Below, in pieces: positions 24,601 through 60,112 of a DNA stretch of 64,000 bases. This stretch comes from Bacteroidales bacterium. GTDB lineage: Bacteria > Bacteroidota > Bacteroidia > Bacteroidales > UBA10428. The stretch's first letter is position 1. Every line of letters begins with the position of its first letter. The notes under the pieces were generated by a model. That model worked only from the letters and a program-made list of their open reading frames with translations. It had not been told where the DNA came from and made no database searches. The stretch spans positions 2,625,321 to 2,689,320 of the forward strand of contig CBDDKV010000002.1 in assembly GCA_965230395.1 (NCBI GenBank). The letters are read 5' to 3'. The position numbers and the translations under genes are program-made.

Positions 24601-26931
24601 TTAATCAGGTTTATTCTCCATTTTTAAAACGAGCCTGCCACCATTAATAATGTCTTTATGTCGGATTTCGTAATCATCAAGGGGCTGATCATTCAAAAGC
24701 ACTTTTTTAACATAAACATTTTCAGGACCGTTATTCCGGGTTTCAATGCTAAAACTACTGCCTTCATAATAATCAGGGTTTAGCCGAATGCTTATTTTGT
24801 CAAATATAGGGCTGCCTATCTGGTAAGCAGGGTTTTCCTCAGTACCTCCTGTCATTTGAAAAAGACCAATTTTCATTAAAACACTAAGTGAGCCCATTAA
24901 CCCCTGATCTTCATCGCCGTTGTATCCCGTGTCCGGATTCAAGCCGGAGTAAGCAGCTTTTACAACTTTACGCGACCAGTATTGTGTTAAATCAGGCCGG
25001 CCTAGTTTGTTGAAAATAAACGCCGTTTGAATGGACGGTTGATTGCCATAGTTAACAGGTATTCTGTTGTATTCCGGATGGAGTTCTTTGTCGTGTGAAG
25101 TACCGGCCGTAAAACCTAATTTTTCAGCCTCCACAAAAGAGTTGTTTAACTTTTCAATAGCTCTTTCCTTTCCTCCCATCAATTCAGCCAGCCCGTTTAG
25201 GTCGTGAGGGACAAACCAGGTTGACTGCGCCCCGTTTGATTCATTAAACCCATTCTCATATTCATAGGGGTCAAAAGGTTCCTTCCAATTGCCACTGGCA
25301 TCCTTTGGGCGCATCCAACCTGACGTGGGATCATAAACATGTTTATAGTTTTCAGAGCGTTTCATGAAATACTTGTAATCATCATCTTTTTCCAAGGCTT
25401 TCGACATTTGGGCCAGGGTCCAGTCCTGGTAGGCATACTCCATAGTTAAGCTCGCCCCATCCTGATGATACCCAAAGTCACCTTCCGGAATGGGCCAGGG
25501 GACATAACCTTTCTCAACATAATAATTCAACCCGCCGCCAAGGTTTGTTTTATGTTCGTATCCTGCTTTCCCCATGATACCTCCTGGCATGTGGTTTTTC
25601 TTTAGCCCTTCATATGCAGCATCAATATCGAAGTTCCGAATGCCTTTCTGGTAAGCACTAACAATAAACGGAGTTGATGAGGCCCCGGTCATTACATAGG
25701 TGTAATTTCCTCCTGACGGTCCGCGGGGAATGAGCCCTCCATCTTTGTAATATAAAAGCAGGGAATTGACAAACTCTTCTGAAATTTCAGGGTATACTAA
25801 ATGCCAAAGAGTATTTAACGTCCATTGCGCACCCCAGAATGCGTCAGAATTGAAGTGTCTGTGCTTTGGAGAACCGTTTTCATCCAGGTCGATTTGCCTT
25901 ATTTTTCTCTCTTTACCGGTAAAGTCTGAGTATTTACCATTTACGTCGCTTATTGTCCTTCTGCCTTGCAGTGCATGGAACAAGTCGGTATAAAACCTTT
26001 TTCGGTCTGTTTCTGTTCCTCCTTCGATTTCAATTCTGCTCAAATATTCATTCCATTCATGCTGCGATTCACTCACAATTTTATCAAAATCCCAGTGGGT
26101 AAGTTCCGTGTCAAGGTTTAACAAAGCCTGTTCTTCGTTTACATAGGATATGCCTACCTTCATAAGTAACGGAGTGTCCCTTTTGCCGAGGTTGACAATT
26201 ACCCCTGAGTTTTTCCCGGATATCTGATTAATGTTCGAATAAATATTATTACTAACCCACCCATCAATTGACTTAATTTCATCATTAAAACGAACAGCAA
26301 AAAAAACAGGCGTACTTTTAGGCCTCCTTTTTGTAGGTCCGTTAACAATTTTACCGGTTAATAAATCACTGTCAACTTTCTTTATTTCGCCGTATTCAAT
26401 ATCAGAGGGGCCCAACATTCCTCCGAGTTTAAAAAGTACTTTTTGATCGTCATCTTTATTGTTAAAGGTATATCTATGAAAACCGGTCCTGAGTGTAGAG
26501 GTAAGTTCCACATCAATATTATAGCGGTTTAGGGTTAGTTTGTGGTAGCCGGGTTTTACAACTTCATTGTCGTGCGAAAAACCGGAATAGTAATTTTCTT
26601 TAATGCTACTTACTTCATTTTTCTCTGACACAGGCATTAAGGAAACCCCTGATAACTGCCAGGCATGTATGTGGCTGAACCCCTTAACAGAATCGGAGTT
26701 GTAGCGGTAGCCACTTCCCCAGGCACCACCAATTTCGGTGTCAGGACTTAAATTAACCATTCCGAACGGCCTTGTTGCAGAATTAAAGAAAAACCATCTT
26801 GAGTTGGCACAATCCAGATGGGGGTATACCATGTCAACAATCCTATTTTCAGGGGTGCAACCCGATAAGGCGAAAATGAGGATGAACAAATTAAGCGAAA
26901 GTTTCATTAATGTATTTTTTTTATCAAACAT
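24601..26931 (-). CDS. GH92 alpha-mannosidase (lipoprotein)
   Basis: 'SRWFFFNSATRPFGMVNLSPDT', 'KGFSHIHAWQLSG', 'ESNGAQSTWFVPHD' and 'GNQPSIQTAFIF' are GH92 motifs. The lipobox 'LSGC' suggests the real start is the Met at 26907 (MKLSLNLFILIFALSGC). Confidence 0.9.
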   Translation of the reverse strand: MFDKKNTLMKLSLNLFILIFALSGCTPENRIVDMVYPHLDCANSRWFFFNSATRPFGMVNLSPDTEIGGAWGSGYRYNSDSVKGFSHIHAWQLSGVSLMPVSEKNEVSSIKENYYSGFSHDNEVVKPGYHKLTLNRYNIDVELTSTLRTGFHRYTFNNKDDDQKVLFKLGGMLGPSDIEYGEIKKVDSDLLTGKIVNGPTKRRPKSTPVFFAVRFNDEIKSIDGWVSNNIYSNINQISGKNSGVIVNLGKRDTPLLMKVGISYVNEEQALLNLDTELTHWDFDKIVSESQHEWNEYLSRIEIEGGTETDRKRFYTDLFHALQGRRTISDVNGKYSDFTGKERKIRQIDLDENGSPKHRHFNSDAFWGAQWTLNTLWHLVYPEISEEFVNSLLLYYKDGGLIPRGPSGGNYTYVMTGASSTPFIVSAYQKGIRNFDIDAAYEGLKKNHMPGGIMGKAGYEHKTNLGGGLNYYVEKGYVPWPIPEGDFGYHQDGASLTMEYAYQDWTLAQMSKALEKDDDYKYFMKRSENYKHVYDPTSGWMRPKDASGNWKEPFDPYEYENGFNESNGAQSTWFVPHDLNGLAELMGGKERAIEKLNNSFVEAEKLGFTAGTSHDKELHPEYNRIPVNYGNQPSIQTAFIFNKLGRPDLTQYWSRKVVKAAYSGLNPDTGYNGDEDQGLMGSLSVLMKIGLFQMTGGTEENPAYQIGSPIFDKISIRLNPDYYEGSSFSIETRNNGPENVYVKKVLLNDQPLDDYEIRHKDIINGGRLVLKMENKPD

Positions 26932-27320: not shown

Positions 27321-30300
27321 ATGAAACGAATTTTACTACTACTATTAGTTATTATTATTTCAGGAGGATACACAATTGCCCAGAAGGAGATGTTGGGGAA
27401 AATTGTAGACACTGAAGGAAATCCATTGCCAGGTGTTAATATCTTGGAAAAAGGCACTACGAATGGGACAATTTCTGACTTAAATGGGAAATATATGATT
27501 TCTGTGAGTTCAGATAGCGCAATTTTGATTTTTTCATATGTCGGATTTTTGACAGAGGAAATGCCGGCTGGAACAGAGACCGAATTAAACATGACGCTGT
27601 TGGAAGATTTAATCGGGCTAAGTGAGGTTGTGGTTGTTGGATATGGAACCACAAAAAAGTCCGATTTGACCGGCTCTGTAACTTCTTTTAACTCAGAGCA
27701 GTTAACGGGAATGAAGAAAACTGATGTTTCGCAGGCTATTCAAGGGCAAATGGCTGGGGTAGACGTGCGTAGACTGAGTTCTAAACCGGGGGCTCCAATG
27801 TCAATTAAAATTAGGGGTAATACCGTTATAAAAAACGATAATGTTGGTAATGATGGTGTTAGTGATAGCCCAGACGATGATTTGTCAAAGCCGCTTTATG
27901 TTGTGGATGGTATTTTTATGGATGATATTAATGCCATTAACCCTGCAGATATTGAAAAGATGGACATTCTTAAAGATGCTTCTGCAACTGCAATCTATGG
28001 CTCCCGGGGGGCGAATGGTGTGGTGATTATTACGACCAAAAGTGGTTTTGAAGGGAAAACACAAATAACATATGATGGGTCAATAGGTTTTAATCAGGCA
28101 ACAAATATTCCTGAAATGCTAAATGGCGAGCAGTACGTAAAATTTGTTGATGATGCATTAAGAGCGATAAAGTGGCAGGATGCCATAAACAAAGGGGGGA
28201 CACCATCAGCAGATGTGTGGAATAATCTGTCGGTTGATCCAGCTACAGAATTTATCGGTTCAAACGAACAAAGTAATGTTGCTAATGGAAGGTACACCGA
28301 TTGGGTCGATAAATTTCAAAAAACAGGAGTACAAACCAGTCACAATGTTGGAGTATTTGGAGGAAGTGATGGCTTAATATATAATGCATCAGTAGGGTAT
28401 TTAAAAGATGAAGGTGTTATTGGAATTGAAGAGTTTGAAAGATATACGGCTAATGTGGGGGTTGAAAAGAAGTTTGACGCGATATTCTCAGCCGGTTTAA
28501 AAACCTACTTTTCTTATTCGGAAAGAGAAGAAGGCAGTAAGGAGCTATTCCGTAGTTCTTTTAGGTTAGCACCAACTGTCAACCCTTATGAAGATAATGG
28601 GGAAATTAAGTTAATTCCTGACGAGCAAGATCAACGTTTCCTGAACCCTATCTATGAAGAAGAGGGAGCCTGGCGTGTAAATAGCCGGACAACACGGTTG
28701 ATTAGCAATTTATATATCAACATTAAGCCTTTCGATTGGTTAAACTTTCGCTCAACTTTTGCTCCTGAGTTAAGGGCGTATAGATATGGAGAACACAGAG
28801 GGTTGTTAACGAAGGCGGCAAGAAACGAGTCAGGTAGAACAAGGGCATATTTTAATACTGATTTCAGTAATTCATATACTTGGGATAACATAGCCAATTT
28901 GGATTTTAATATTCTTTCGGGACATATGCTTAAAGCAACTATAATATCTTCGGTCTATTATAAGCAGGATGAAGGTTCTGGAATACAGGCTCGAAATCTT
29001 GGTTCTGATTCATACTTGTATTATAATACCGAAGGTGGGACAGACGTACGTGATTATAGTTCAGAATATAAGAAACAAACATTAGCTTCATTTGCAGGGC
29101 GGCTTAACTATAATATTCAGGAAAAGTATCTTTTTACTTTTACAGGCAGGTACGATGGTTCTTCAAAATTAGCAGAGGGTGAAAAATGGAAATTCTTTCC
29201 ATCAGCTGCCTTTGCATGGAGAGTATCAGAAGAAAATTTTATGGGAGGAATAGATTGGCTTAACAACCTAAAACTTAGATTAAGTTATGGAGAGTCAGGA
29301 AATGATAACCCTGTCCAGCCATATAGTTCTAAGGCATTTTTAAATAGTTCATCATATTTGTTTGGAACATCAGGAAAAACAGCGATGTATATTAACTCTT
29401 TGCCAAATCCATCTCTTGGCTGGGAACGTTCGGTAGAAACAAATATCGGGTTGGATATTGGATTATTCGGTGGAAAAATAAGATTAGAAGCTGACTTTTA
29501 TAACAAGGAAACTAAACAAGCAATTCTTGACAAGAAATTAATGTTTGTTACCGGACTATCTGATGGAACAACCGGTAATTTTGGCTCAGTAAGAAATCGG
29601 GGGGTTGAGTTTTTGTTAAAAACGGTAAACGTTAAAACGCCCAATTTTTCTTGGGAAACCAGTATAAATTTTGCAAAGAATAATAATGAAATTCTTGAAC
29701 TTGAAGGAGAGAATGAGAAAATTCCCTTTGGACGTCATGGTGTATTGGAGGTTGGAGAATCTATAACATCAATGTACGCTTATGAAGTTGACGGGATATG
29801 GCAAACAGATGAGGTTGATGAGGCAGCTGTCTATGATAAAGTTCCGGGACAATATAAATTTGTTGATCAACAAGCAGAGGGAGAAGATGGTCATGGAGTA
29901 ATAAATGAAGAGGACAAAGTAATAGTTGGTTCACATGATCCCGATTGGACCGGTGGTATGACGAATACTTTTAGGTACAAAACCTTTGACTTTTCATTTA
30001 TGATTTATACTCGCCAGGGAGTTTTTGGACACTCGGAGTTTTATCAGAACTTTGCTTCACACCAGGGTGATGGTGCTAAGTTTAATAAACTGGATTTAGA
30101 TTACTGGACTCCAAACAACCAGGGAGGGGAATATCCACTACCTAAGATTGGTCATCCTGGTGAGTGGTATTTTGAAGATATGTCGTTTGTTAAGATTGGA
30201 AATATCGGATTCGGTTATAATCTTCCGTCTGATTTGTTAGAAGGGTTGAAAATCAGTAGTTTGCGTGTTTCTGTTGATGTTCAGAACCCATTTACATTTA

Positions 30301-30401
30301 CTGACTACAAAGGTCCAGATCCGGAAACCGGACTACAGAATTCGTATGGAATGGCATATTCTGTTAGAACAATACTTTTTGGTGTAAATCTTAAACTTTA
30401 A
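27321..30401 (+). CDS. SusC/RagA-family TonB-dependent transporter (PUL-A)
   Basis: 1026 aa. CarboxypepD_reg-like N-terminus ('GKIVDTEGNPLPGVNILEKGTTNGTISDLNGKY'), the 'VVVGYGTTKKSDLTGSV' TonB-box region, plug 'IYGSRGANGVVIITTK', and a C-terminal barrel ending in F/L. There is no STN domain. Confidence 0.95.
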   Translation: MKRILLLLLVIIISGGYTIAQKEMLGKIVDTEGNPLPGVNILEKGTTNGTISDLNGKYMISVSSDSAILIFSYVGFLTEEMPAGTETELNMTLLEDLIGLSEVVVVGYGTTKKSDLTGSVTSFNSEQLTGMKKTDVSQAIQGQMAGVDVRRLSSKPGAPMSIKIRGNTVIKNDNVGNDGVSDSPDDDLSKPLYVVDGIFMDDINAINPADIEKMDILKDASATAIYGSRGANGVVIITTKSGFEGKTQITYDGSIGFNQATNIPEMLNGEQYVKFVDDALRAIKWQDAINKGGTPSADVWNNLSVDPATEFIGSNEQSNVANGRYTDWVDKFQKTGVQTSHNVGVFGGSDGLIYNASVGYLKDEGVIGIEEFERYTANVGVEKKFDAIFSAGLKTYFSYSEREEGSKELFRSSFRLAPTVNPYEDNGEIKLIPDEQDQRFLNPIYEEEGAWRVNSRTTRLISNLYINIKPFDWLNFRSTFAPELRAYRYGEHRGLLTKAARNESGRTRAYFNTDFSNSYTWDNIANLDFNILSGHMLKATIISSVYYKQDEGSGIQARNLGSDSYLYYNTEGGTDVRDYSSEYKKQTLASFAGRLNYNIQEKYLFTFTGRYDGSSKLAEGEKWKFFPSAAFAWRVSEENFMGGIDWLNNLKLRLSYGESGNDNPVQPYSSKAFLNSSSYLFGTSGKTAMYINSLPNPSLGWERSVETNIGLDIGLFGGKIRLEADFYNKETKQAILDKKLMFVTGLSDGTTGNFGSVRNRGVEFLLKTVNVKTPNFSWETSINFAKNNNEILELEGENEKIPFGRHGVLEVGESITSMYAYEVDGIWQTDEVDEAAVYDKVPGQYKFVDQQAEGEDGHGVINEEDKVIVGSHDPDWTGGMTNTFRYKTFDFSFMIYTRQGVFGHSEFYQNFASHQGDGAKFNKLDLDYWTPNNQGGEYPLPKIGHPGEWYFEDMSFVKIGNIGFGYNLPSDLLEGLKISSLRVSVDVQNPFTFTDYKGPDPETGLQNSYGMAYSVRTILFGVNLKL

Positions 30402-30419
30402 GTTTTTAAAATAATTACG

Positions 30420-32093
30420 ATGAAATTGATTATTAAATATACATACAAGGTGTTGTTGCTTAGTTTGATAATAAGTTTTTCAGCTTGCGACAACTTTATA
30501 GAAGAGGATAACTATACAAATGTAACTACCGACGAGTATCTTGATGAAAGGAAAGCGGACGAATTAATTGTAGGTATTTACCAATCATTAAGAGCTGTTT
30601 ATAAAGATTATAAGACCGCATTTTCAGGAACAGACATTTTCACTCAACAGGGGCAGTTGTTTTCGGTTAACAAACTAAATGAATATGATGGTTTGAGTTC
30701 GGACGAAGGAGCTGTTTTGGATTTATGGAAACGAAATTATATTACTATTGCCCGGGCGAATACAGCTATTAATAGATATGAAAACCAGATAATCTGGACA
30801 TCTACGTTTCTTGAAGAGAAAGCATATGGCATTGCGCAGGCAAAAGCATTGAGGGCACAGGCTTATTATAATTTGGTACAACAGTTTAGTGATGTCCCTC
30901 TTATTCTTGATGAAATAACAGATATTAAGGAAGACTTTACAAGGGATCCTGAAGAAACTGTATTTGCACAAATAATTAAAGATTTAGAGGAAGCTATTCC
31001 TGTTTTGAAAGATAAACCTGATTTCGGTCGTTTTTCATCGCGCGCAGCACGACATGTTCTAGCTGATGTTTATGTTAGTCGGGGGTATAAAACCTATGGC
31101 AATAATCCTGGGGATTTCACAAAGGCAGCGGAATTGGCTGAACAGGTAATAGGAGACTATGATATCCGCAAGCAAACTTTTGAGAAATTATTTGAATATA
31201 GTAATCAGAAGAACGATGAAGTATTGTTTTCAATACAATATGGCTCCGAAGGAATAAATTATGATGATCGGAACAATAATAAGCACGCTATCTTTATGAA
31301 CTCTGTTAATAATTATAAAGGGATTGCACGGGCGAATCCTTACGGGCGTCAAGATTTAGGTTTAATGCCAACAGAGTATTTCTATTCTCTTTTTGAAGAG
31401 AATGATAGTAGGGAAGCAGTGACACTTCACAGGGTATTATATGCAAACGAAAAGGATACTATAAAGTCAGATAACGGAATAGACCCTATAGCTGTAGGAG
31501 ATACAATTATATTTTATCCTAAAAAAGCATTGAGCGCTGTAGAGTTAGCTAATAAATTAAACCGCTACTGGGTGTACAATCCGGATCAGTATTATTATGG
31601 TACACCGGATAATGTCGCAGGTGCAGTTTATCAGTATTCGTCCAATGTGAATAAAACAAACTTTCCGATCTTTAAGAAGTTTGATGATGTTGGCTTTGAT
31701 GAGTCACAGGGAGGTTCAAGAGATACATACGTATATAGAGTGGCTGAAACGCATTTGATTGCAGCAGAGGCCTATTTGCAAACTAATAACGAAACAAAGG
31801 CTCTTGAGCACATCAATATCGTTCGTGAGCGGGCAACAGGAGAACCGGCACATTATACCGGATCTCTTACCATTGACCAAATACTGGATGAAAGAGCTAT
31901 AGAGCTTGCCGGGGAAGAAAACAGGTGGAATATCCTGAAAAGAACAGGTACGCTCGAAACCCGGATTAATAAATATAACCCTCATGTAATTGATCATGGA
32001 GAATTTAAGACCAACGTGCACTATTTAAGGCCAATTCCGGCTCAGGAAAGGGAACTTTCTGATGGTTCTTTAGGTCAAAATGAAGGTTACTAA
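30420..32093 (+). CDS. SusD/RagB-family lipoprotein (PUL-A)
   Basis: Lipobox 'FSAC'. SusD C-terminal motifs 'YRVAETHLIAAEAYL', 'NIVRERA' and 'ILDERAIELAGEENRWNILKR'. It lies immediately downstream of the SusC-like gene. Confidence 0.9.
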   Translation: MKLIIKYTYKVLLLSLIISFSACDNFIEEDNYTNVTTDEYLDERKADELIVGIYQSLRAVYKDYKTAFSGTDIFTQQGQLFSVNKLNEYDGLSSDEGAVLDLWKRNYITIARANTAINRYENQIIWTSTFLEEKAYGIAQAKALRAQAYYNLVQQFSDVPLILDEITDIKEDFTRDPEETVFAQIIKDLEEAIPVLKDKPDFGRFSSRAARHVLADVYVSRGYKTYGNNPGDFTKAAELAEQVIGDYDIRKQTFEKLFEYSNQKNDEVLFSIQYGSEGINYDDRNNNKHAIFMNSVNNYKGIARANPYGRQDLGLMPTEYFYSLFEENDSREAVTLHRVLYANEKDTIKSDNGIDPIAVGDTIIFYPKKALSAVELANKLNRYWVYNPDQYYYGTPDNVAGAVYQYSSNVNKTNFPIFKKFDDVGFDESQGGSRDTYVYRVAETHLIAAEAYLQTNNETKALEHINIVRERATGEPAHYTGSLTIDQILDERAIELAGEENRWNILKRTGTLETRINKYNPHVIDHGEFKTNVHYLRPIPAQERELSDGSLGQNEGY

Positions 32094-51152: not shown

Positions 51153-53216
51153 ATGAGAATTTTTATTCCACTTTTAATCATACCATTGTTAATGACTTCT
51201 TGTCAAAACAAACCGGAGTTAGTGAACGCTCGATATATTGATCCATTTATTTGTACAGAAGATGATCATGGTCAAACCGATGTAGCGGCAGCAATACCTT
51301 TTGGTATGGTCAAACCGTGTCCTGATACAGACCCAATTGGCCATTCAGGATATGACTTTAATTCAAACGAAATTTTCGGTTTTTCACATACACGTTTTTC
51401 TGGTGTCGGATGCCGGGGTGTTGGTGGAAATATCCGTGTGCTGCCATTTGCCAATAAAGATACCATACCACAAAAGCTTAGTTATAATAAAAATTCTGAA
51501 GTGGCAAAACCAGGCTATTATGAAGTGGTTCTTGAAGAGGGAATTCATGTTAAACTAACGGCCACAAATAAAGTCGCTTTTCACAGTTATATATTTCCCG
51601 AGTCAGACAAAAGCGGTATTGTAGTTGATTTATCAAGTTCATTTGAAGGGCATATTTCAGAACAACATCAATTTGATGAAAGTGGAATTTTATACGGAAA
51701 AGTTGAATCAGTAAATGTATGTCAATTAGGTAAATACTCTTTTTATTTTGCGTTCTGCCTTGATAAGGCTGAAACAGGGGTTTATAATGAAGGTTCAAAA
51801 GTAATTTACAACTTTAAAACTTCTGAGGGTGAAAAAGTTAAAGCTTATTGCGCTCTTTCTGTCATCAATGAGGAACAAGCCATTTCCAACCTGAAAAAGG
51901 ACATGGAATTAAGCTTTGTTAATGTTAGAAACAAAGCATTTGAACAATGGAACGATTTAATGAATGTAGTGGAAGTTCAAACCGATGATACCGTTGCTAA
52001 ACGGTTATTTTACACGCATTTATATCATGCAACCCAGTCCCCGTTTTTAATTAGTGAGGATGATGGGACCTACCGAGGAAGTGATGGGAACTTATATCAG
52101 AGTAGACAAATAAAACATTACCATGGCTGGTCTATCTGGGATACCTTCAGAAGTAAACTTCCCTTATTGTCATTCTTATACCCAGAACTATATTCTAAAA
52201 TGACAGCTTCAATTGGCGAATTATATAAACAAGGTAAACCTGACTGGGCAACTGAAACCGAGCCATTTATTACCATAAGAACGGAGCATTCTATTATTGT
52301 ATTACTGGAAGCTTACCGCAAAGGACTACTAACGTTCCCGCTTGAAGAAATATATCCTTTATTAAAAAAAGAAGTTGAACACCTTCCTTTTAAAACGCCG
52401 GATAATGTTCTGGAATCCAGTTATGATTTATGGGCATTTTCAGAAATAGCAAAAAAACTGGGGAATATGGATGACTATTACTGTTATAAGAAAAAGGCTT
52501 ATCAATATAAAGAAGTCTGGAAAGAAAAATTCATGGTAATAGATGAGAAATCTGACATCATGCATGGCGACGGACTTTACGAAGGAACTTTATGGCAATA
52601 TCGTTGGTTTGTACCATTTGACATTAAAGGAATCCAGGAACTAGTCTCTGGTAAAGATACTTTTGAACAACAGTTAGATCAATTTTTTGAAGAGGAGTTG
52701 TTTAACATAGGTAACCAACCAGACATACAGGTGCCTTATCTGTATGCATACACTAATTCTCCCTGGAAGACACAAAAGGTTGTTCATACACTTTTAAATG
52801 AAGTAACAAATAATTGGTACGGGACACATAATAAATGGAAAAAACCAATGACACGCAAAATCTTTCAGGATTCCCCTAAAGGGTATATTAAAGAGATGGA
52901 TGATGACGCTGGTACAATGTCAGCATGGTATGTGTGGTCATGTCTTGGGTTATATCCGGTGTTTCCCGGTTCAACGGAGATGGTTATTTCAACACCTCAA
53001 TTCGAAAATATTAAAATAAAGTTACCTAAAGGGTTTTTAGAGATTGAATCAATAAAACCTTCAGCTGAATCAATTTATATCCAAAAAATAGAAATAAACG
53101 GGGAAAATTGGAATTCTGGTTTCATTGATTTTAACCTCTTGTCTGATGGTGGCAAAATATTAATTGAGTTGGGAGAAATACCTAATAAAAGTTGGGGAGT
53201 GGTAAATAAGAATTAA
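51153..53216 (+). CDS. GH92-family glycoside hydrolase, short divergent clade (lipoprotein; paralog of 32241-34298)
   Basis: Collinear with 32241-34298 along its whole length, with the same motif variants ('IPFGMVKPCPDT', 'YEGTLWQYRWFVPFD', 'GNQPDIQVPYLYAY', 'MDDDAGTMSAWYV'). Lipobox 'MTSC'. Confidence 0.85.
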   Translation: MRIFIPLLIIPLLMTSCQNKPELVNARYIDPFICTEDDHGQTDVAAAIPFGMVKPCPDTDPIGHSGYDFNSNEIFGFSHTRFSGVGCRGVGGNIRVLPFANKDTIPQKLSYNKNSEVAKPGYYEVVLEEGIHVKLTATNKVAFHSYIFPESDKSGIVVDLSSSFEGHISEQHQFDESGILYGKVESVNVCQLGKYSFYFAFCLDKAETGVYNEGSKVIYNFKTSEGEKVKAYCALSVINEEQAISNLKKDMELSFVNVRNKAFEQWNDLMNVVEVQTDDTVAKRLFYTHLYHATQSPFLISEDDGTYRGSDGNLYQSRQIKHYHGWSIWDTFRSKLPLLSFLYPELYSKMTASIGELYKQGKPDWATETEPFITIRTEHSIIVLLEAYRKGLLTFPLEEIYPLLKKEVEHLPFKTPDNVLESSYDLWAFSEIAKKLGNMDDYYCYKKKAYQYKEVWKEKFMVIDEKSDIMHGDGLYEGTLWQYRWFVPFDIKGIQELVSGKDTFEQQLDQFFEEELFNIGNQPDIQVPYLYAYTNSPWKTQKVVHTLLNEVTNNWYGTHNKWKKPMTRKIFQDSPKGYIKEMDDDAGTMSAWYVWSCLGLYPVFPGSTEMVISTPQFENIKIKLPKGFLEIESIKPSAESIYIQKIEINGENWNSGFIDFNLLSDGGKILIELGEIPNKSWGVVNKN

Positions 53217-53238: not shown

Positions 53239-54470
53239 AAAATAAACAGAGTATTCTAATGAAAATAAAGCAGATGAATCATAAAAATATTGCATTAATT
53301 ATTTTAGCGGCTCTACTCTATTTATCAAGCTGCAAAAACACAGGCGGTTCTATTTTCGATATAGTATCGTATGGTGCAATCTCAGATGGAGAAACAGTTT
53401 CAACAGAAGCTATTCAAAAAGCAATAGATGCAGCCAATAAAAGTGGTGGGGGCAGGGTAATAATACCGGAAGGCAATTTCGTTACCGGAAGTATCATATT
53501 GAAATCAAATGTGGAATTGTACCTGAGCGAAGGTGCCACCCTATACGGAAGCATTGATCCGAGGAGTTACAGAAAAATTGAAGTAGAGGGAATGCCCGTG
53601 TCGCCAAAAACAGATGACAATTCAAAGTTGGCCATCATTCTGTCCCATGATGCCCACAATATTTCTGTAACCGGTAAAGGAACTATTGATGGCAGGGGCG
53701 GGGAACTGGTAAAGGTTATGGACAGCCTGCACAAAGCCGGAATTTATGAAATAAAAGAGTACGATTTTGCCAATAAAAGGATAAGGGAAACAGAACGGCC
53801 AAAGATTCTAATGTTTATGGAGTCTGACCATGTGACTGTTTCCGGGATTACCATTAAAAATTCAGCTGTTTGGGTCCAAACGTATGAACTGTGCACCCAT
53901 GTTAGAATTGATGGGATTACGGTAGAAAGCCGGGCTTTTTGGAATAACGACGGAATGGATATTTCAGATTGCAGGAATGTGCAAATCACGAATTGTAATG
54001 TCAATGCCGCCGATGATGGGATCTGTTTGAAGTCTTACTATCCGGGTTATTGTAACGACTCAATATACATTGCTAATTGCAATATTCGCACAAGTGCAAG
54101 TGCCATAAAATTCGGCACCGCTTCAATTGGTGGGTTTAAAAACGTAATCATCGAAAATATAAAGGTCTTTGATACTTTCCGGTCGATGATTGCGATTGAA
54201 TCTGTAGATGGCGGAGATATTGAAAATGTTCATGTCTCAAATATGGAAGGCAAAAATACCGGAAATGCTATTTTTATTCGCTTGGGGCACCGGAGTGGCG
54301 AAAAGCCGGGAACAGTGAAGAATATAACCATTAAGGATTTAAAGTGTGAAGTTCCATTCGGAAGGCCGGACGAAGGATATGCATTCGAAGGTCCCTGGCC
54401 AAGAGGGGCGCACAACCGGCATCCGGCACCTATTGCGGGTATACCTAATCATTATATTGAGAATGTAACA
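53239..54470 (+). repeat. 1.23-kb near-identical dispersed repeat, copy 2 (partner 40768-41999)
   Basis: See copy 1. It includes 20 nt upstream of the start codon and the first ~404 codons of the GH28 paralog. Confidence 0.9.
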
Positions 54471-55553
54471 TTAGAAAACATTGAAATTACTTATCCCGGG
54501 AAATCGTCAAAAGATATAGCCTACATTGATTTAAATAAACTGGATGATGTTCCTGAAAAAATCAGTTCTTATCCTGAATATAGTGCGTTTGGTGAACTAC
54601 CTTCCTGGGGCTTTTATGTGCGGCATGTTAAAGGGCTTTCAATGAAAAACATTACGCTTAAACTTGAAGACAAAGATTTTCGCCCCCCATTTGTGTTTGA
54701 TGATGTTTATAATTTAAAACTTTCAGGTATCAATGCTCCCCAGGATAACAATGCTATTGTTACCAGAGGAGTTGAGGATATGGAAATTGATGACGAACTA
54801 TCAGAATCGGTAAAAGTTATTCAATCCAGATGCAAGGATATAAACGATGGAGGTGCTTTATACAGGTTTAAAGACAAAATTGAATTAGAACTTACTTCAG
54901 AAACAAAAACGGCAAGAATTCATTATACACTAGACGGTAGTACTCCAACCAAAAAATCGAAAATTTATGATAAACCGATTAATATTACAGATAATGTTTA
55001 TCTAAGAGCTATTGCATATGCGGATAATTATTATCCAAGTAGGGAATTCTCTAAAAAATATGCTAAATCAATTTTAAATGAATTGCCTGAGGGATATCCA
55101 AAGGTTAACCTCAAGCTTAAACCCCAAAAATATGGAGATCCGGAGGGTAGCTTATTGCTCGATGGATTTTTTGGAACGGATGATTTTACAGATAAGAAAT
55201 GGACAGGCCTGAATAACAAGGATTTTGTAATAGAAGTAGATTTAGGTGAGGAAGTAGCCTGTAGTGAAGTTCAACTTTATGCCCTTACATCTACCTTGAA
55301 AAGAATTCTTCCACCTGAAAAAATTTCAATTTATGCCAAAAGTATGGCGGGTGAGTATGTTAGAGTAAAAACCGAATCATATAAACCAGTTAGTAAGCAT
55401 GCCATTAACACCAACTATTATCAGCTAAAATTTCAAAGAATAAAAACCAGGTTAATTAAGATAGTAATTCAAAATACTGGCGTTTTACCGCAATGGCATC
55501 ATGCAAGGGGTGAATTGTCCTGGTTATTCATAGATGAAATAAATGTCAAATAG
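53259..55553 (+). CDS. GH28-family glycoside hydrolase + C-terminal Fn3-like/discoidin-like module (paralog of 40788-43082)
   Basis: Same 764 aa length. The N-terminal ~404 aa are almost identical to 40788-43082, while the C-terminal 360 aa are clearly homologous but much more diverged ('ARIHYTLDGSTPTKKSKIYDKPI', '...QNTGVLPQWHHARGELSWLFIDEINVK'). Confidence 0.85.
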   Translation: MKIKQMNHKNIALIILAALLYLSSCKNTGGSIFDIVSYGAISDGETVSTEAIQKAIDAANKSGGGRVIIPEGNFVTGSIILKSNVELYLSEGATLYGSIDPRSYRKIEVEGMPVSPKTDDNSKLAIILSHDAHNISVTGKGTIDGRGGELVKVMDSLHKAGIYEIKEYDFANKRIRETERPKILMFMESDHVTVSGITIKNSAVWVQTYELCTHVRIDGITVESRAFWNNDGMDISDCRNVQITNCNVNAADDGICLKSYYPGYCNDSIYIANCNIRTSASAIKFGTASIGGFKNVIIENIKVFDTFRSMIAIESVDGGDIENVHVSNMEGKNTGNAIFIRLGHRSGEKPGTVKNITIKDLKCEVPFGRPDEGYAFEGPWPRGAHNRHPAPIAGIPNHYIENVTLENIEITYPGKSSKDIAYIDLNKLDDVPEKISSYPEYSAFGELPSWGFYVRHVKGLSMKNITLKLEDKDFRPPFVFDDVYNLKLSGINAPQDNNAIVTRGVEDMEIDDELSESVKVIQSRCKDINDGGALYRFKDKIELELTSETKTARIHYTLDGSTPTKKSKIYDKPINITDNVYLRAIAYADNYYPSREFSKKYAKSILNELPEGYPKVNLKLKPQKYGDPEGSLLLDGFFGTDDFTDKKWTGLNNKDFVIEVDLGEEVACSEVQLYALTSTLKRILPPEKISIYAKSMAGEYVRVKTESYKPVSKHAINTNYYQLKFQRIKTRLIKIVIQNTGVLPQWHHARGELSWLFIDEINVK

Positions 55554-55572
55554 AAAATTTTAATCGAGTATT

Positions 55573-58116
55573 ATGAAAAAACATTTTTACATTTTCATTG
55601 TGTTTATTATTTCGTTATCACATGTTCCGAATTTCGTTTTCTGCCAAAAAACGGAGCCTGTTGATTTTGTAGATCCTTTTATTTGTACTAAGGGTGACCA
55701 TGGTCACTGGCACCCTTCAGCATTGGTGCCGTTTGGACTTGTTCATGTTGGTCCGGACACATATCCCGGAAGCTTAACCGGCGATGGCGATTTGGCTCAT
55801 TCAGGTTATGATTTTGACGATTCTTCTATTCGTGGTTTTAGCCACTTTCGTTTAGGTAGTTCAGGAGGGGCAAGTGTCAGCGACAGGTCCGGTAATTTTT
55901 CATTACTCCCGTATACCAGCACTCCCGGTGCGGCATGGGTTAAACATCCGGTTGTTTCAGTGGATAAATCGCGGGAAGACGCGTCTCCGGGATATTACAC
56001 AACATATTTGGACAAAGAAGGTGTTCAGGTAGAACTATCGGCAACAACCCGATGTGCAATACACAAATATCAATATGCGGCCAATAAAGATGCAAAGATA
56101 TTTTTATATGAGGGGCAGTCTGGCCTCGAAGGTAAGATAAGTTATAATATTAAAGACCCTTATACAATCGAAGGAAAAGGGATGCCATATTTTAAAATAG
56201 TATTCAATCAACCTATCCTGAATATTGAAAAATGGGATGGTAGCAATATGGTGTCATCTGCATTTAGCGCACAATTGATAGAAAATGGTTTTTCCTGCGA
56301 TTTTGGTGAAATTACAGAGCCGCTCATTGCTAAAATTAGTTTTTCATTGGTTAGTTTACTAGGGGCAAGAAGAAATTTTGATGCAGAGGTTTCACCTTGG
56401 AACTTTGAACAGATTAAATTACAAGCATCAGAACATTGGAATGAAACGCTTAATAATATTTCGATAAAAGGCAGCAGCGAAAGAGATAAAACCATTTTTT
56501 ATACCGCACTTTACCATACTTGTTTTCATCCAATGATCCAGTCAGATGTCGACGGAAGGTATTTTGGGATGGATAAACAAATACATTCTGCCGATGGTTA
56601 TGAACAAATTAACGGATATGCTTTTTGGGATACTTTTAGGAATAAATATCCATTATATAGCCTGTATCTTCCTGGTGCATACCGAAATGTTCTGTATTCA
56701 ATTAAAGATATCTACAATCAGGCTGTAGGTTACAGCCCCTTCCCGGCAAGCGACCACAGCCCTCATGGTTCATCCTACAGGGCACAGGGTAAAGACGGGC
56801 ACAGGTTTTATAATACGGTCCGCCATGAGCATATGTTAATGGTTGTTGTAGATGCTTATTTCAAAGGATTATTTCGCGAAGATCTGGATATCAATGATTT
56901 TTACGATTATTTAAAAAGTGAAACTTTATTGCAAATGCCAGCCAGTTACGATGAAATTGGTTATATACCCAAAAGAGCAGATCAGACAGGTGAATACAGC
57001 ATGGATAACTGGGCAGTTGCTAAGATTGCAAATGAACTGGGGCACACAGAGGATTATGAATATTTTAATAAAAGGGCCAATTATTGGAAAAATACCTGGG
57101 ATCCTTCGATTAAATATTTCCGTGCACGTGCAGAAAATGGATCCTGGCTTGATTTTCCCAATGACCCCACCATCAACCGTGAAAAATACACTTACGAAGG
57201 TTCTAAATGGCATTGGAGGTGGAATGCATTACATGACGTAACCAGCTTGATCTCATTATTTGGAGGCTTCGACGATTTTACCGGGCAACTGGAATATTTT
57301 TTTGATAACGACCTATATACTGCGGGGAACCAAATAGATCTACATGCCCCATATTTATTTAACTATGCGGGAGTTCCGTCGTTAACACAAAAATGGACAT
57401 ATAAAATTTTAAAAGAACCAATCACCCAGCTTTATGGGACACATGATTTCTTTGATAAACCAATTACAGATTATATATATAAAGATACTCCGGATGGATA
57501 TCTGTTAGAGATGGACGGTGATCTGGGCTGTATGGCATCCTGGTATGTACTTAGTGCTATGGGGCTTTATCAAGTATGCCCCGGGGAAACCGTTTATCAA
57601 ATTACTACTCCTATTTTTAGTGAGATTACATTAGATTTAGATACGGCTTTTTACGATGGTTCTAAATTTACCATTAAGGCTGAAAATTTAAGTGATGATA
57701 ATTTCTATATCCAGTCTGCCACACTAAATGGTGAGCCGATCGATCGTCAATGGTTGACTCACAATGAAATCACACAGGGTGGAGAACTGGTTTTGGTAAT
57801 GGGTAATAATCCTGGTCAGTTTGGAACAAGCGTTAAAAAGGTTACGAGTAATCAGTCGGCCCAATTGGCACAAAACTATCCAAATCCGTTTAGTTCCGGC
57901 ACGACCATTAACTATTCAATTCAAACACCGGGTTTTGTTGCTATTAAGGTCTATGACTCATTTGGAAAAGAAATAAAAACACTTTTTGAAGGAAAACAGG
58001 ATCCCGGAAACTATTCTGTTTTCTTAGACGGACAAGACATGAGCAATGGAGTTTATATATATACTTTAGAAACGAAGGGAGGGACTCAGTTTAACAAAAT
58101 GCTTCTGTTGAAATAA
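55573..58116 (+). CDS. GH92-family glycoside hydrolase with T9SS C-terminal sorting domain
   Basis: 'VDPFICTKGDHGHWHPSALVPFGLVHVGPDT', 'YEGSKWHWRWNALHD', 'GNQIDLHAPYLFNYAG' and 'MDGDLGCMASWYV'. The last ~80 aa ('NYPNPFSSGTTINYSI...VYDSFGKEIKTLF...GVYIYTLETKGGTQFNKMLLLK') fit the type-A T9SS C-terminal domain pattern. Confidence 0.85.
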   Translation: MKKHFYIFIVFIISLSHVPNFVFCQKTEPVDFVDPFICTKGDHGHWHPSALVPFGLVHVGPDTYPGSLTGDGDLAHSGYDFDDSSIRGFSHFRLGSSGGASVSDRSGNFSLLPYTSTPGAAWVKHPVVSVDKSREDASPGYYTTYLDKEGVQVELSATTRCAIHKYQYAANKDAKIFLYEGQSGLEGKISYNIKDPYTIEGKGMPYFKIVFNQPILNIEKWDGSNMVSSAFSAQLIENGFSCDFGEITEPLIAKISFSLVSLLGARRNFDAEVSPWNFEQIKLQASEHWNETLNNISIKGSSERDKTIFYTALYHTCFHPMIQSDVDGRYFGMDKQIHSADGYEQINGYAFWDTFRNKYPLYSLYLPGAYRNVLYSIKDIYNQAVGYSPFPASDHSPHGSSYRAQGKDGHRFYNTVRHEHMLMVVVDAYFKGLFREDLDINDFYDYLKSETLLQMPASYDEIGYIPKRADQTGEYSMDNWAVAKIANELGHTEDYEYFNKRANYWKNTWDPSIKYFRARAENGSWLDFPNDPTINREKYTYEGSKWHWRWNALHDVTSLISLFGGFDDFTGQLEYFFDNDLYTAGNQIDLHAPYLFNYAGVPSLTQKWTYKILKEPITQLYGTHDFFDKPITDYIYKDTPDGYLLEMDGDLGCMASWYVLSAMGLYQVCPGETVYQITTPIFSEITLDLDTAFYDGSKFTIKAENLSDDNFYIQSATLNGEPIDRQWLTHNEITQGGELVLVMGNNPGQFGTSVKKVTSNQSAQLAQNYPNPFSSGTTINYSIQTPGFVAIKVYDSFGKEIKTLFEGKQDPGNYSVFLDGQDMSNGVYIYTLETKGGTQFNKMLLLK

Positions 58117-58168
58117 CAATACAGCCTAAATCCAATCAATATTTATTGTTTAACTAAAAATAACTATT

Positions 58169-60112
58169 ATGAGAGGAATTAATTCTACACTATTCATTTT
58201 TGTATTCCTATTTACTTCGAGTATAGTATTTGGGCAAAAAACGACCAGTTTAGGTTTTCATTTTGAGGATGAAAACAGTCTTGTTGATTGCGGATTAATC
58301 ACTGAAGATCTGTCAAATTTTACTATCGAAACGTGGGTGTATATTTCTACTTATAGGGATAATTATTTTCTTGCCAGCGAAGGTAGTGAAAAAGTAGGTG
58401 AAAGAAGCGGCTTTGTATTAAGAACGTCAGAAGGTGACAATAAGAAGAAAGCACTGCTGAAATATGGAGGGAACAATTCCTGGCACAGCGTAGAGGGCTC
58501 TACTGAAATGGATACCATGACCTGGTACCATATTGCAGTCACTTACGATGGAACAACCTTAAAGCTTTATGTAGACGGTATTCTTGATGGATCATCAACT
58601 CCATCTGCATCGATGACCGCTGCCGGTGAAAACCTGATTATGGGTGAAGGTGCCCAATGGAGAAACCGCAGATTAGAAGGGAGATTGTCGGACGTTAGGA
58701 TATGGAGTGTTGTCAAAACCCGTCAGGAAATTGTTGATAACAAGGATAAATACCTTGAGAGTGCTCCTGCAGGCTTGGTTGCAAACTGGAAATTAGATGA
58801 AGGTACAGGTACTGATATTAGCGATTTAGTTGGAAATTATAACGCCAAAATTGGTTCAGGTGTAACCTGGGAGGTTGAAGAGGCCGGTCCAACATCGAAT
58901 AGCCTGGTATTTGATGCTTCAGATGAAAACAGTCTGGTAGACTGTGGTTTAATAACAGAAGACCTTTCCAATTTCACATTCGAAACGTGGGTGTATATTT
59001 CTACATACAGAGACAACTATTTTCTTGCCAGTGAAGGTAGCGAAAAAGCTGGTGAAAGAAGTGGCTTTGTATTGAGAACATCAGAAGGTGACAATAAAAA
59101 GAAAGTGTTGCTGAAATATGGAGGGAACAATTCCTGGCACAGCGTAGAGGGTACTACAGAAATGGACACCATGACCTGGTACCATGTTGCTGTTACTTAT
59201 GATGGAACAACATTAAAGCTATATATGGACGGTGTTCTTGATGGATCGTCTACTCCATCTGCATCGATGACCGCTGCTGCGGAAAACCTGATTATGGGTG
59301 AAGGGGCTCAATGGAGAAACCGCAGATTAGAAGGGAAATTATCAGATGTTAGAATATGGAGCGTTGCCAAAACACGTCAGGAAATCGTTGATAACAAAGA
59401 TAAATATCTGGAGAGTGCACCAACGGGATTGGTTGCAAACTGGAAATTGGATGAAGGTACAGGAACGGATATAAGCGATTTGGTTGGGAATTATAATACA
59501 ACAATTGGTTCTGGTGTTAGCTGGGATATGGGCGGTGAAATCCAGACTCCCAGCTATGCATCCGCAACTACCGATACAAAAGGAACGGTTGTTGAAGTAA
59601 CGTTTAGTAAGGATATGGCTGATCCATCATCTGAAGCGGCAAGCTTTACTGTTATGGTTGATGGTAGTAGTAATGCCGTTACAGGAGCAGCTCTTAAAAG
59701 CGGTGATGCCAAAACAATTGTATTGACATTAACAAACGCTGTTAGCCAGGGCCAAACCGTAACTGTTGCATACACTGAAGGTGCATTAGAATCTGCGGAT
59801 GGTAATAAATTAGCAAGCTTTGAGGCTACAGCTGTTACCAATAGAGTTAATTTAACTGCTCTGAATTCGCTTTCTTCAGATGCTGTTAAGGTATTTCCAA
59901 ACCCGTTTGAAGATTATGTATATGTTGAAACTATAAGTCAAATCGCTAACGTTTCTCTTATTACTTTAAATGGTCAGGAAATAGAAATAAATTATTCAAT
60001 TAATAATAATTCAGCTACTCTGAATACGAATGATGTTAAAGCTGGAATATATATTATAAAGGTAATAACTGCGGAACAGGAAATTGCCATACATAAAATT
60101 ATTAAGAATTAA
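58169..60112 (+). CDS. secreted protein with two tandem LamG/concanavalin-A-like lectin domains, an Ig-like domain and a T9SS C-terminal sorting domain
   Basis: Two 218-aa repeats carry LamG-type motifs ('FTIETWVY...', 'WYHIAVTYDGTTLKLYVDG', 'LSDVRIWS'). An Ig-like segment follows ('VEVTFSKDMADPSS...FTVMVDGSSNAVTGAAL...GQTVTVAYTEG'), then the T9SS tail 'VFPNPFEDYVYVE...GIYIIKVITAEQEIAIHKIIKN'. Confidence 0.8.
   Translation: MRGINSTLFIFVFLFTSSIVFGQKTTSLGFHFEDENSLVDCGLITEDLSNFTIETWVYISTYRDNYFLASEGSEKVGERSGFVLRTSEGDNKKKALLKYGGNNSWHSVEGSTEMDTMTWYHIAVTYDGTTLKLYVDGILDGSSTPSASMTAAGENLIMGEGAQWRNRRLEGRLSDVRIWSVVKTRQEIVDNKDKYLESAPAGLVANWKLDEGTGTDISDLVGNYNAKIGSGVTWEVEEAGPTSNSLVFDASDENSLVDCGLITEDLSNFTFETWVYISTYRDNYFLASEGSEKAGERSGFVLRTSEGDNKKKVLLKYGGNNSWHSVEGTTEMDTMTWYHVAVTYDGTTLKLYMDGVLDGSSTPSASMTAAAENLIMGEGAQWRNRRLEGKLSDVRIWSVAKTRQEIVDNKDKYLESAPTGLVANWKLDEGTGTDISDLVGNYNTTIGSGVSWDMGGEIQTPSYASATTDTKGTVVEVTFSKDMADPSSEAASFTVMVDGSSNAVTGAALKSGDAKTIVLTLTNAVSQGQTVTVAYTEGALESADGNKLASFEATAVTNRVNLTALNSLSSDAVKVFPNPFEDYVYVETISQIANVSLITLNGQEIEINYSINNNSATLNTNDVKAGIYIIKVITAEQEIAIHKIIKN
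58247..59554 (+). repeat. in-frame tandem duplication, 2 x 654 bp (LamG domain pair)
   Basis: The unit starting 'SLGFHFEDENSLVDCGLITEDLSNF' (58247) recurs as 'SLVFDASDENSLVDCGLITEDLSNF' (58901). The anchor gatgaaaacagtc is at 58268 and 58922. The amino-acid sequence is largely conserved, while many third-codon positions differ. Confidence 0.9.

Follow-up and report, generated by a model that had tools for sequence, protein, structure and literature searches.

The closest described relatives of the locus reported here are polysaccharide utilization loci (PULs) of Bacteroides. In B. thetaiotaomicron, MAN-PUL1/2/3 and the PUL for high-mannose N-glycans combine SusC/SusD import with several glycoside hydrolases of family 92 (GH92), GH125 and a layout of lipoprotein and periplasmic enzymes, and they are not known to contain GH28, GH115 or an enzyme of the phosphoinositide phospholipase C (PI-PLC) type. 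The Bacteroides PULs for pectin, i.e. rhamnogalacturonan I and II (RG-I, RG-II) and homogalacturonan (HG), carry exo-galacturonidases of family GH28 (e.g. BT4146, BT4153, BT4155; structure 5olp). A stretch of 64,000 nucleotides from contig CBDDKV010000002.1 of a Bacteroidales bacterium (hereafter the window) contains a gene cluster that shares SusC/SusD import, several GH92 genes, GH125 and the enzyme layout with the mannan and N-glycan PULs but, unlike these, has no GH76, GH99, GH38, GH18 or GH130 and possesses four GH28 genes, a GH115 gene and a PI-PLC-like gene. Its GH28 proteins have the fold and the Asp triad of the Bacteroides pectin enzymes, which are their closest relatives in sequence and fold, but they are only ~19–30% identical to these, they lack the GHG His and RIK Arg/Lys, and their partner genes encode mannosidases and inositol-phosphate enzymes. 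In the current study, comparison with related loci indicated that the cluster very probably belongs to a conserved PI-PLC-linked PUL family, which is widespread in Bacteroidota and undescribed, and of which the window contains a lineage-specific, enlarged member.

Genes were assigned by open reading frame (ORF) listing and Pfam scans, and the families named below were checked in all ORFs of at least 150 aa between 24.6 and 64 kb. The cluster (Table 1, which also defines the gene names) extends from 24601 to at least 64000, including PI-PLC and GH115. Within 24601–60112, Pfam recovered five GH92 genes (E values 1e-98 to 1e-142), four GH28 genes, one GH125, two SusC/SusD pairs and one tandem-LamG protein secreted by the type IX secretion system (T9SS). 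This gene set, as listed in the initial annotation, was confirmed at its coordinates with strong Pfam support, as was the absence of GH76, GH38, GH99, GH130, sulfatases, polysaccharide lyases and esterases. The same scan found no CE8, CE12, GH105, GH88, GH106, PL1, PL9, PL10 or PL11, no GH18, GH85 or GH20, and no endo-acting mannanase in the window. SusC and SusD genes are adjacent twice, at 27321–32093 and 46424–50956 (Pfam Plug, CarbopepD_reg_2, SusD_RagB and SusD-like_3), and are accompanied by co-oriented genes for carbohydrate-active enzymes (11 GH genes counted) with lipobox-type, twin-arginine (Tat)-type or T9SS signals at their termini, which supports the designation of the region as a PUL. 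Neither the gene combination of yeast alpha-mannan PULs (GH76 and/or GH99 endo-alpha-mannanase with GH92 and GH125) nor that of pectin PULs (pectate or RG lyases, CE8/CE12 and GH105/GH88 beside GH28) occurs between 24.6 and 64 kb. The earlier view that the region fits neither paradigm is thus supported, GH38 being absent as well. The GH115-like gene noted at 62061 proved to be genuine; it had been taken for a loose neighbor 2 kb downstream, but it is part of the conserved core described below, and the PI-PLC ORF preceding it (60857–61981) had been overlooked. No hybrid two-component system (HTCS) and no ECF/anti-sigma pair was detected within 24.6–64 kb; in orthologous PULs an HTCS follows GH115 and a Metallophos gene, i.e. 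at a position beyond the end of the window.

The product of the PI-PLC-like ORF covers positions 1–327 of the 329 positions of profile PF16670 (E 1e-123), i.e. its full length, and contains the N-terminal motif IGSHNSYK (SHNSY, with catalytic-type His-Asn) and a lipobox Cys; the ATG at 60890 is the likely start. Its only solved relatives are bacterial PI-PLCs (3h4w, 5fyo). The window protein shares its family with the Ca2+-dependent PI-PLC1 of Streptomyces antibioticus (PF16670; 3h4w/3h4x), but direct similarity is weak (E 6e-7 over ~100 residues), and it differs from that enzyme in being a Bacteroidota lipoprotein encoded within a PUL. Homologs at 60–72% identity, with orthologs at 63–72%, are widespread in Bacteroidota. 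Some orthologs, namely P0144, P0151, P0170 and P0191 (Polaribacter and metagenome), are fused to an alpha/beta-hydrolase (esterase/lipase-type) domain, with lengths of ~510–617 aa.

Seventeen genomic contexts of PI-PLC were compared, six from genomes picked irrespective of GH28 (Polaribacter, Maribacter, Flavobacterium, Cellulophaga, a Prolixibacteraceae metagenome-assembled genome (MAG) and Marinifilum) and 11 from metagenome contigs. In all 17, PI-PLC was located among glycosidase genes. Thirteen loci had at least 5 kb of downstream sequence; a Metallophos phosphoesterase was present in 13/13 of these, an HTCS in 12/13, a long GH115 directly after PI-PLC in 9/13 and myo-inositol oxygenase (MIOX) in 6/13. 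The window has the same gene order, PI-PLC being followed by a long GH115. GH92_a is 60–63% identical to the GH92 of locus L001 and of the PI-PLC-anchored loci L083–L087, and its type is the one GH92 that is present even in PI-PLC PULs without GH28; it was also found in metagenome loci L091, L092 and L096. SusD1 is 62.6% identical to the SusD of a GH28-less PI-PLC PUL (L084). The family core consists of SusC/D, a GH92_a-type mannosidase, PI-PLC, Metallophos and HTCS, while a long GH115 is usual and MIOX and a Na/solute symporter (SSF) are often present; PI-PLC is the hallmark gene. The remaining glycosidases vary among PI-PLC loci (GH28, further GH92, GH125, GH29, GH3, GH78, GH2, GH43 and GH89). 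Linked MIOX genes lie either divergently upstream or, in a second arrangement, downstream of HTCS, a pattern that speaks for selection acting on this linkage and against a single accident of inheritance. The Metallophos protein had a sole, distant match in the PDB, the Listeria phosphoesterase Lmo2642 (E 1e-8), which gives no specificity.

Loci anchored on GH28_a gave a second view of the family. Here 82 loci were clustered by ORF, namely 80 species-level genome loci with flanks of up to 10 kb together with L001 and L002; flanks of 10 kb undercount linkage, PI-PLC being 25 kb from GH28_a in the window. The most frequent neighbors were GH92 (45/82), SusC/D (38/82), HTCS (24/82), GH43 with F5/8 (20/82) and GH115 (19/82), followed by the Metallophos phosphoesterase (14/82), GH125 (11/82), MIOX (PF05153, E 1e-110) and PF16670 PI-PLC (10/82 each), SSF (8/82) and a pair of GH89 and DUF5009 (5/82). 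The usual gene order is SusC-SusD-GH92-GH28-GH92-GH125-PI-PLC-GH115-Metallophos-HTCS. In marine Flavobacteriaceae (L020, L023, L025 and L031) this order forms a compact operon with SSF and MIOX divergent upstream and HTCS where visible, and partial versions of it occur in L017 and L028. Among the GH28-anchored loci, linkage to MIOX was seen only in Flavobacteriaceae; three unclassified metagenome contigs showed it as well.

The window genes SusC1, SusD1, GH92_a, GH92_b, GH28_a, GH28_b, GH125, PI-PLC and GH115 all have orthologs of 56–85% identity in the conserved PUL, and several of these occupy equivalent positions. SusC1 orthologs (56–64%) stand at the head of the conserved PULs, with SusC1 and SusD1 together in the range of 56–64% and SusD1 at 58–63% in the GH28-anchored loci. 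GH92_b orthologs (61–64%) lie directly 5′ of GH28_a orthologs, GH125 orthologs (77–85%) immediately 5′ of PI-PLC in L020, L023, L025, L031 and L087, and GH115 orthologs (66–74%) directly 3′ of PI-PLC, which itself is 63–67% identical to its orthologs in these loci. A variant was found in Marinilabiliales relatives (L050, L052, L055, L059 and L069) and in metagenome locus L095, where GH89 (alpha-N-acetylglucosaminidase, E 6e-151) and DUF5009 directly follow the GH28_a ortholog. DUF5009 is a polytopic membrane protein that resembles the heparan-alpha-glucosaminide N-acetyltransferase type, and the GH89/DUF5009 pairing is otherwise typical of alpha-glucosamine removal. Full-text literature searches found no paper that describes this gene set; two preprints bear on its context indirectly.

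PI-PLC, the phosphoesterase and the inositol oxygenase make joint sense only if the substrate contains inositol phosphate. From this gene context we estimate a probability of about 0.5 that the target is a glycan carried on inositol phosphate. In our reading, glycosyl inositol phosphoceramides (GIPCs) of plants, algae or fungi provide the best candidate, either as their head group itself or as inositol-phosphate glycans released from it; plant-type GIPC specifically is a more tentative identification, which we regard as possible without favoring it. The core of plant GIPC is Man- or GlcN(Ac)-α1,4-GlcA-α1,2-Ins-1-P-ceramide (Man, mannose; GlcN(Ac), glucosamine or its N-acetyl form; GlcA, glucuronic acid; Ins, inositol; P, phosphate). 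GH115 enzymes cleave α-1,2-linked GlcA, and the same linkage type is cut by them on xylan. The core enzymes of the family, together with alpha-mannosidase and alpha-glucuronidase, would thus map bond for bond to Man-α1,4-GlcA-α1,2-Ins-1-P-ceramide, judged by gene context only. The only PF16670 enzyme known to have been dissected biochemically, that of Streptomyces antibioticus, is reported to form a 1,6-cyclic and not a 1,2-cyclic phosphate intermediate, and by this route a PF16670 enzyme should tolerate inositol glycosylated at the 2-O position.

In the proposed pathway, the PI-PLC lipoprotein would cut the phosphodiester to the lipid (the phosphate-ceramide bond), and the inositol-phosphate glycan would then be imported by SusC/D. 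Alpha-mannose would be trimmed by GH92 and GH125, alpha-linked uronic acid would be taken off inositol by GH115 and possibly by the GH28 enzymes, the Metallophos enzyme would remove the phosphate, and MIOX would oxidize inositol to glucuronate, so that both end products would enter uronate catabolism. Each functional step is read from gene content, the observations themselves being gene presence, orthology and synteny. To the core the window has added GH92_b to GH92_e, GH125, four GH28 genes, modules resembling carbohydrate-binding modules (CBMs), T9SS-secreted proteins and a second SusC/D block. These additions point to a glycan that sits on the same type of anchor but is larger, rich in mannose and probably acidic. 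The GH89 and DUF5009 genes of the Marinilabiliales variants would fit the GlcN(Ac)-α1,4-GlcA series of GIPCs. A bolder combination, namely that this is the first bacterial catabolic system for GIPCs or inositol-phosphate glycans, which constitute the main sphingolipid head groups in plants, algae and fungi, and that the GH28_a clade, perhaps also GH28_b, has a new specificity (hydrolysis of alpha-uronosyl-inositol or of alpha-mannosyl-(1,4)-glucuronate), is rather doubtful.

Two systems outside the family resemble parts of this scheme. BcGIPC-PLC1, secreted by Botrytis cinerea, frees soluble inositol-phosphate glycans, up to series H, from plant material (bioRxiv 10.1101/2023.11.16.567443). 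Its PLC-type cleavage of GIPC to a soluble inositol-phosphate glycan is the first step proposed here, and the likeness lies in the proposed reaction; the enzyme is described as a putative sphingomyelinase and not as a PF16670 protein, and no glycan catabolism or transporter is described there. The other is PUL39 of a plant-associated Bacteroidota strain, which is similar in gene content. Transposon sequencing indicated that this uncharacterized PUL aids plant colonization; it comprises a Na/sugar symporter, SusD, SusC, inositol oxygenase and LacI, i.e. the same linkage of SusC/D, MIOX and symporter, and the authors give its substrate as unknown (bioRxiv 10.64898/2025.12.01.691665). Its regulator is LacI instead of the HTCS of the conserved family, and the passage describing it mentions no glycosidases.

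Several points weigh against an inositol-phosphate substrate, which is deduced wholly from gene neighborhood. Five GH92 enzymes, four GH28 enzymes and two SusC/D pairs are much machinery for a short glycolipid head group, and we know of no GIPC structure that would obviously require GH28. The role of the GH28 clade is the main unexplained item. The PF16670 proteins could cut another phosphodiester. Pfam detected neither MIOX nor SSF in the 64-kb window, Metallophos and HTCS are likewise absent from it (their expected positions being past its end), and no Marinilabiliales relative has MIOX within 10 kb. Moreover, 55 of the 80 GH28_a loci contain no PI-PLC, GH115, MIOX or Metallophos within 10 kb. 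In Chitinophagaceae and Pedobacter, GH28_a orthologs adjoin GH43, GH26, a clan-A-like hydrolase, GH2, GH31 and CE2, often with GH92. Loci L022, L024, L034, L037, L040, L044 and L049 (Chitinophagaceae, Pedobacter and Flavobacterium from soil or freshwater) have GH43 with F5/8, one of them a GH26 with CBM35 and a T9SS tail, and no inositol-related gene was found in any of them; this cluster looks like a PUL for a plant heteropolysaccharide. The same GH28 clade serves at least two locus types and is therefore not restricted to inositol-linked loci.

These last loci bear on another explanation, in which the substrate is a free acidic alpha-mannan, such as the glucuronomannan or fucoglucuronomannan of plant gums, brown algae, diatoms or fungi. 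GH92 and GH125 would then act on mannose, GH115 and GH28 on uronic acids, and PI-PLC and Metallophos would be accessory or act on phosphate substituents. The abundance of exo-mannosidases, the two SusC/D systems, the CBM-like F5/8 and LamG modules and the T9SS enzymes are more in keeping with a polymer than with a small head group. Moreover, GH28_a occurs with GH92 also in loci that are free of inositol genes, the set of GH43, GH26, clan-A-like hydrolase, GH2, GH78 and CE2 found there fits a branched plant-type heteropolysaccharide, and DUF4861, a frequent companion of uronate genes, adjoins GH28 in L001 and L085. However, neither an endo-acting mannanase nor a lyase is encoded in the window, and the tightest partners are left unexplained, namely PI-PLC itself, Metallophos (13/13) and MIOX (6/13 PI-PLC loci), as is the orthology of SusD1 and GH92_a to PI-PLC PULs without GH28. 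We therefore consider a free acidic mannan unlikely. Of the acidic alpha-mannoside target suggested in the initial annotation, the acidic alpha-mannoside is still reasonable, but given the core of PI-PLC, GH115, Metallophos and HTCS, a free polysaccharide is less likely than a glycan on inositol phosphate.

Another conceivable substrate is a lipid- or phosphate-linked surface mannan of fungi or yeasts, e.g. (galacto)mannan anchored by glycosylphosphatidylinositol (GPI), mannoprotein remnants, phosphomannan or mannose-rich fungal GIPC (Man-Ins-P-Cer, with Cer for ceramide). The PI-PLC family contains the classical GPI-releasing enzymes and would free the GPI or inositol phosphoceramide anchor, Metallophos or a GH92 like CcMan5 would handle phosphodiesters, GH92 with GH125 is the classical exo-mannosidase pair for α-1,2/1,3 and α-1,6 mannosides, and the GH89 and DUF5009 of relatives would fit the GlcN-α1,6-inositol of GPI. 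CcMan5 is indeed the top solved relative of the short GH92_b, but the match is not better than that to an ordinary GH92 (E 3e-72 versus 1e-70); GH76, GH99 and GH38 endo-mannanases are missing from the window; and known structures of GPI or yeast mannan offer no role for GH115 (9/13 PI-PLC loci) or the GH28 enzymes. This alternative is accordingly quite improbable. Least probable by far is a PUL for pectin (HG or rhamnogalacturonan) with incidental mannosidases, or for high-mannose N-glycans. In favor of these readings, GH28 is the family of the polygalacturonases, the top NCBIfam model of GH28_a is that of the rhamnogalacturonidase BT4146, and GH92 with GH125 occurs in N-glycan PULs. The BT4146 score, however, is far under the equivalog cut-off, the His and Arg/Lys conserved in polygalacturonases have gone from the whole GH28_a clade, and the partner families expected for pectin (PL1/PL9/PL10/PL11, CE8/CE12, GH105/GH88/GH106) or for N-glycans (GH18, GH85, GH20, GH130) are missing. 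Both were rejected on the missing partners and the changes in the GH28 active site.

The assignment of the four proteins to GH28 stood. All score 63.8–76.8 bits with PF00295 (cut-off 22.9; E 2e-17 to 2e-21), their nearest solved relatives by sequence are the exo-acting GH28 enzymes 5olp and 3jur (E ~1e-27; identity ~19–30%), and profile and fold searches reassigned none of them to another family. AlphaFold (AF2) modeling of GH28_a from an alignment of 25 sequences (pLDDT 86) gave a right-handed parallel beta-helix whose top Foldseek matches in the PDB are the exo-polygalacturonases 3jur, 5olp and 2uve (E ~1e-16). Another beta-helix family was rejected, as Pfam, NCBIfam, the PDB sequence search and the fold search all rank GH28 first. 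NCBIfam equivalogs were rejected as a guide to substrate specificity, all matches being far under the cut-offs (281 bits versus 500 for GH28_a with the BT4146 model).

The catalytic Asp triad of GH28_a (D228/D249/D250) is invariant in the 25-sequence alignment and aligns with the NTD and DD motifs of 1bhe, 3jur and 5olp, and the NxDGxD and DD motifs are kept in all four window paralogs. The window GH28 proteins are thus genuine and probably active exo-type enzymes of a diverged clade. In contrast, the GHG His of polygalacturonases corresponds to A277 or S278 in GH28_a, so that the His is absent, and the RIK Arg/Lys correspond to A307/A309 when read in register with 1bhe and 3jur, with the Lys aligned to E311 in the 5olp register. 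Across the GH28_a clade the replacing residues vary little or not at all. Since GHG His and RIK Arg/Lys are contacts to the uronate carboxylate, their loss weakens the label polygalacturonase, though not membership in GH28. The specificity of the GH28 enzymes is not readable from sequence; the active-site changes argue for one in the GH28_a clade that has not yet been recorded in GH28. In L085 and L091, GH115 is absent and GH28_a lies directly before PI-PLC, a hint that GH28_a may be an alpha-uronidase; this is a guess, and many loci have both genes. Homologs of GH28_a number in the thousands, with orthologs of 60–75% identity in Flavobacteriaceae, Marinilabiliales, Chitinophagaceae, Sphingobacteriaceae and Cytophagales, and by sequence it appears to be the founder of a large Bacteroidota clade that is highly conserved across orders. 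The closest relatives of the window are MAGs of Saccharicrinis, Sunxiuqinia and Draconibacterium. GH28_b has orthologs of 74–84% identity in L003, L004, L005, L007, L009, L011 and L079.

Relationships within the cluster were determined by pairwise BLASTP. GH92_b and GH92_d are 62% identical, GH28_c and GH28_d 80% (over 763 aa), GH28_a and either of the latter 55–56%, and GH28_b and the other three GH28 proteins ~26%. GH92_c, GH28_c and GH28_d have in common a C-terminal module of ~240 aa (CHB_HEX_C_1/Fn3_assoc with F5/8-type-C), which in GH92_c is 53% identical to that of GH28_c and 43% to that of GH28_d, and which also matches the tail of beta-hexosaminidase 6q63. These identities indicate that the GH92-GH28 pair was duplicated and that the binding module was apparently shuffled between unrelated catalytic domains inside one locus. 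The SusC and SusD proteins, in contrast, are only 31% and 25% identical between the two pairs; judged by these values neither pair is a recent copy of the other, and their divergence is that of unrelated paralogs. The suggestion that twin loci arose by ancestral duplication therefore holds for the GH92-GH28 pair (62% for GH92, 80% and 55% for GH28) but not for SusC/SusD, and SusC2/SusD2 have no close orthologs in the related loci. Duplication of the whole locus was rejected for the SusC/D pairs because of their low identity.

The best solved relative of GH92_a is 6f8z. For GH92_b (685 aa) and GH92_d (685–687 aa paralogs) the top PDB match was CcMan5 (2xsg/4aq0; E 3e-72, with ordinary GH92 structures at 1e-70), a GH92 enzyme that uncaps mannose-1-phosphate-6-mannose. 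This lead was dropped, the scores being no better than those of ordinary GH92 matches such as 6f8z. Orthologs of GH92_c (65–72%) were found in L003, L009 and L011, and those of GH92_d (65–70%) in L003, L004, L007, L013 and L016.

For SusC2, SusD2, GH28_c, GH28_d, GH92_e, the LamG protein and a 396-aa ORF no close counterpart was found in the related loci; GH28_c had no close ortholog in the 80 related loci, the best match of SusC2 was ≤38% and SusD2 had none above 28%. In the conserved operon PI-PLC directly follows GH125, and the block at 44607–60149 of the window sits exactly between these two genes, a variable position that holds other accessory genes in other genomes; the block terminates in a strong terminator-like hairpin (Table 1). 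We read this second block as a putative lineage-specific insertion into one conserved PUL. Local GC content is 0.32 for 44001–46000 and 0.28 in the intergenic region 45798–46423. The 396-aa ORF (44607–45797) had no Pfam or NCBIfam match at threshold; a weak Trans_reg_C match (E 0.03, residues 49–80) and one hydrophobic helix at about residues 120–140 suggest that it is possibly a membrane-anchored winged-helix (ToxR/CadC-like) regulator of the SusC2/SusD2 block. A promoter scan was uninformative (91 sites versus 73 expected); it used the sigma-70 consensus, which is unsuited to Bacteroidota.

Table 1. Features of the cluster in window coordinates.
Feature	Position	Strand	Family support and remarks
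GH92_a, lipoprotein alpha-mannosidase	24601..26931	-	Pfam GH92N + GH92, E 8e-142; divergent from SusC1
SusC1, TonB-dependent transporter	27321..30401	+	Pfam CarbopepD_reg_2 + Plug
SusD1, surface glycan-binding lipoprotein	30420..32093	+	Pfam SusD_RagB, SusD-like_3
GH92_b, short (685 aa) GH92 lipoprotein, first of conserved GH92-GH28 pair	32241..34298	+	Pfam
GH28_a, diverged exo-type GH28	34326..35885	+	PF00295, E 2e-21
GH28_b, second distinct GH28 clade	35999..37522	+	PF00295, E 2e-17
GH92_c, GH92 with C-terminal CHB_HEX_C_1 + F5/8-type-C module	37742..40774	+	Pfam
GH28_c, GH28_a-type catalytic domain with CHB_HEX_C_1 + F5/8-type-C tail	40788..43082	+	Pfam
GH125, exo-alpha-1,6-mannosidase family	43089..44525	+	PF06824, E 2e-161
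Hypothetical 396-aa protein	44607..45797	-	Divergent from SusC2
SusC2, second TonB-dependent transporter	46424..49606	+	Pfam
SusD2, short (445 aa) SusD-like protein	49619..50956	+	Pfam
GH92_d, GH92_b paralog	51153..53216	+	Pfam
GH28_d, recent GH28_c paralog with identical domain architecture	53259..55553	+	Pfam
GH92_e, secreted GH92 with T9SS C-terminal sorting domain	55573..58116	+	Pfam GH92 + Por_Secre_tail
Secreted protein with two Laminin_G_3 domains, Ig-like repeat and T9SS tail	58169..60112	+	Pfam, NCBIfam
Intrinsic-terminator-like hairpin, 13-bp stem and T run, closing the second block	60120..60149	+	
Ca2+-dependent PI-PLC-like lipoprotein, 374-aa ORF	60857..61981	+	PF16670, E 1e-123
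GH115 alpha-glucuronidase family, cut by the window end	62061..64000	+	PF15979, E 3e-137

Some of these features can be specified further. The LamG protein (58169–60112) is probably a binding protein, and SusC2 probably starts at the ATG at 46458. The N-terminus of GH125 (window 43089–43160) reads MTTRRSFIKKSMVATAG and contains TRRSFIK, a predicted signal of the twin-arginine type and not of the lipoprotein type. An ORF of 167 aa antisense within GH28_b (36593–37096, minus strand) is most likely spurious.

The genes upstream of 24601 (AnmK, a C69 peptidase, PAS histidine kinases, a TonB receptor with PepSY and a LytTR two-component pair) look unrelated to the PUL. An ORF of 930 aa (4737–7529, minus strand) had no Pfam family and only weak coiled-coil-type NCBIfam matches (Scy, DivIVA, FliH) in its last ~140 residues. 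It is followed at 8040–14679 by three consecutive sensor kinase genes, including a 1111-aa multi-PAS hybrid histidine kinase and a response-regulator/kinase fusion, which precede the TonB receptor and PepSY pair (15480–19468) and have no apparent link to the PUL. Four small ORFs at 22115–23869 (minus strand) adjoin the LytTR/His_kinase two-component pair at 20384–22092. The 179-aa ORF among them (22115–22654) had no NCBIfam match, and the three hydrophobic membrane ORFs (129–134 aa, 22669–23869) showed no significant mutual similarity, so that their paralogy was rejected.

In plants and fungi, GIPCs rank with the most abundant lipids of the membranes. We are not aware of any described bacterial pathway for harvesting their glycan-inositol-phosphate head groups, nor did full-text literature searches turn one up. 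If the inositol-phosphate reading is true, the substrate class would be new for a PUL. The family is carried by marine Flavobacteriaceae, sediment Marinilabiliales and soil or plant-associated taxa, and it gives a testable route for glycolipid turnover in marine, sediment and rhizosphere carbon cycling.

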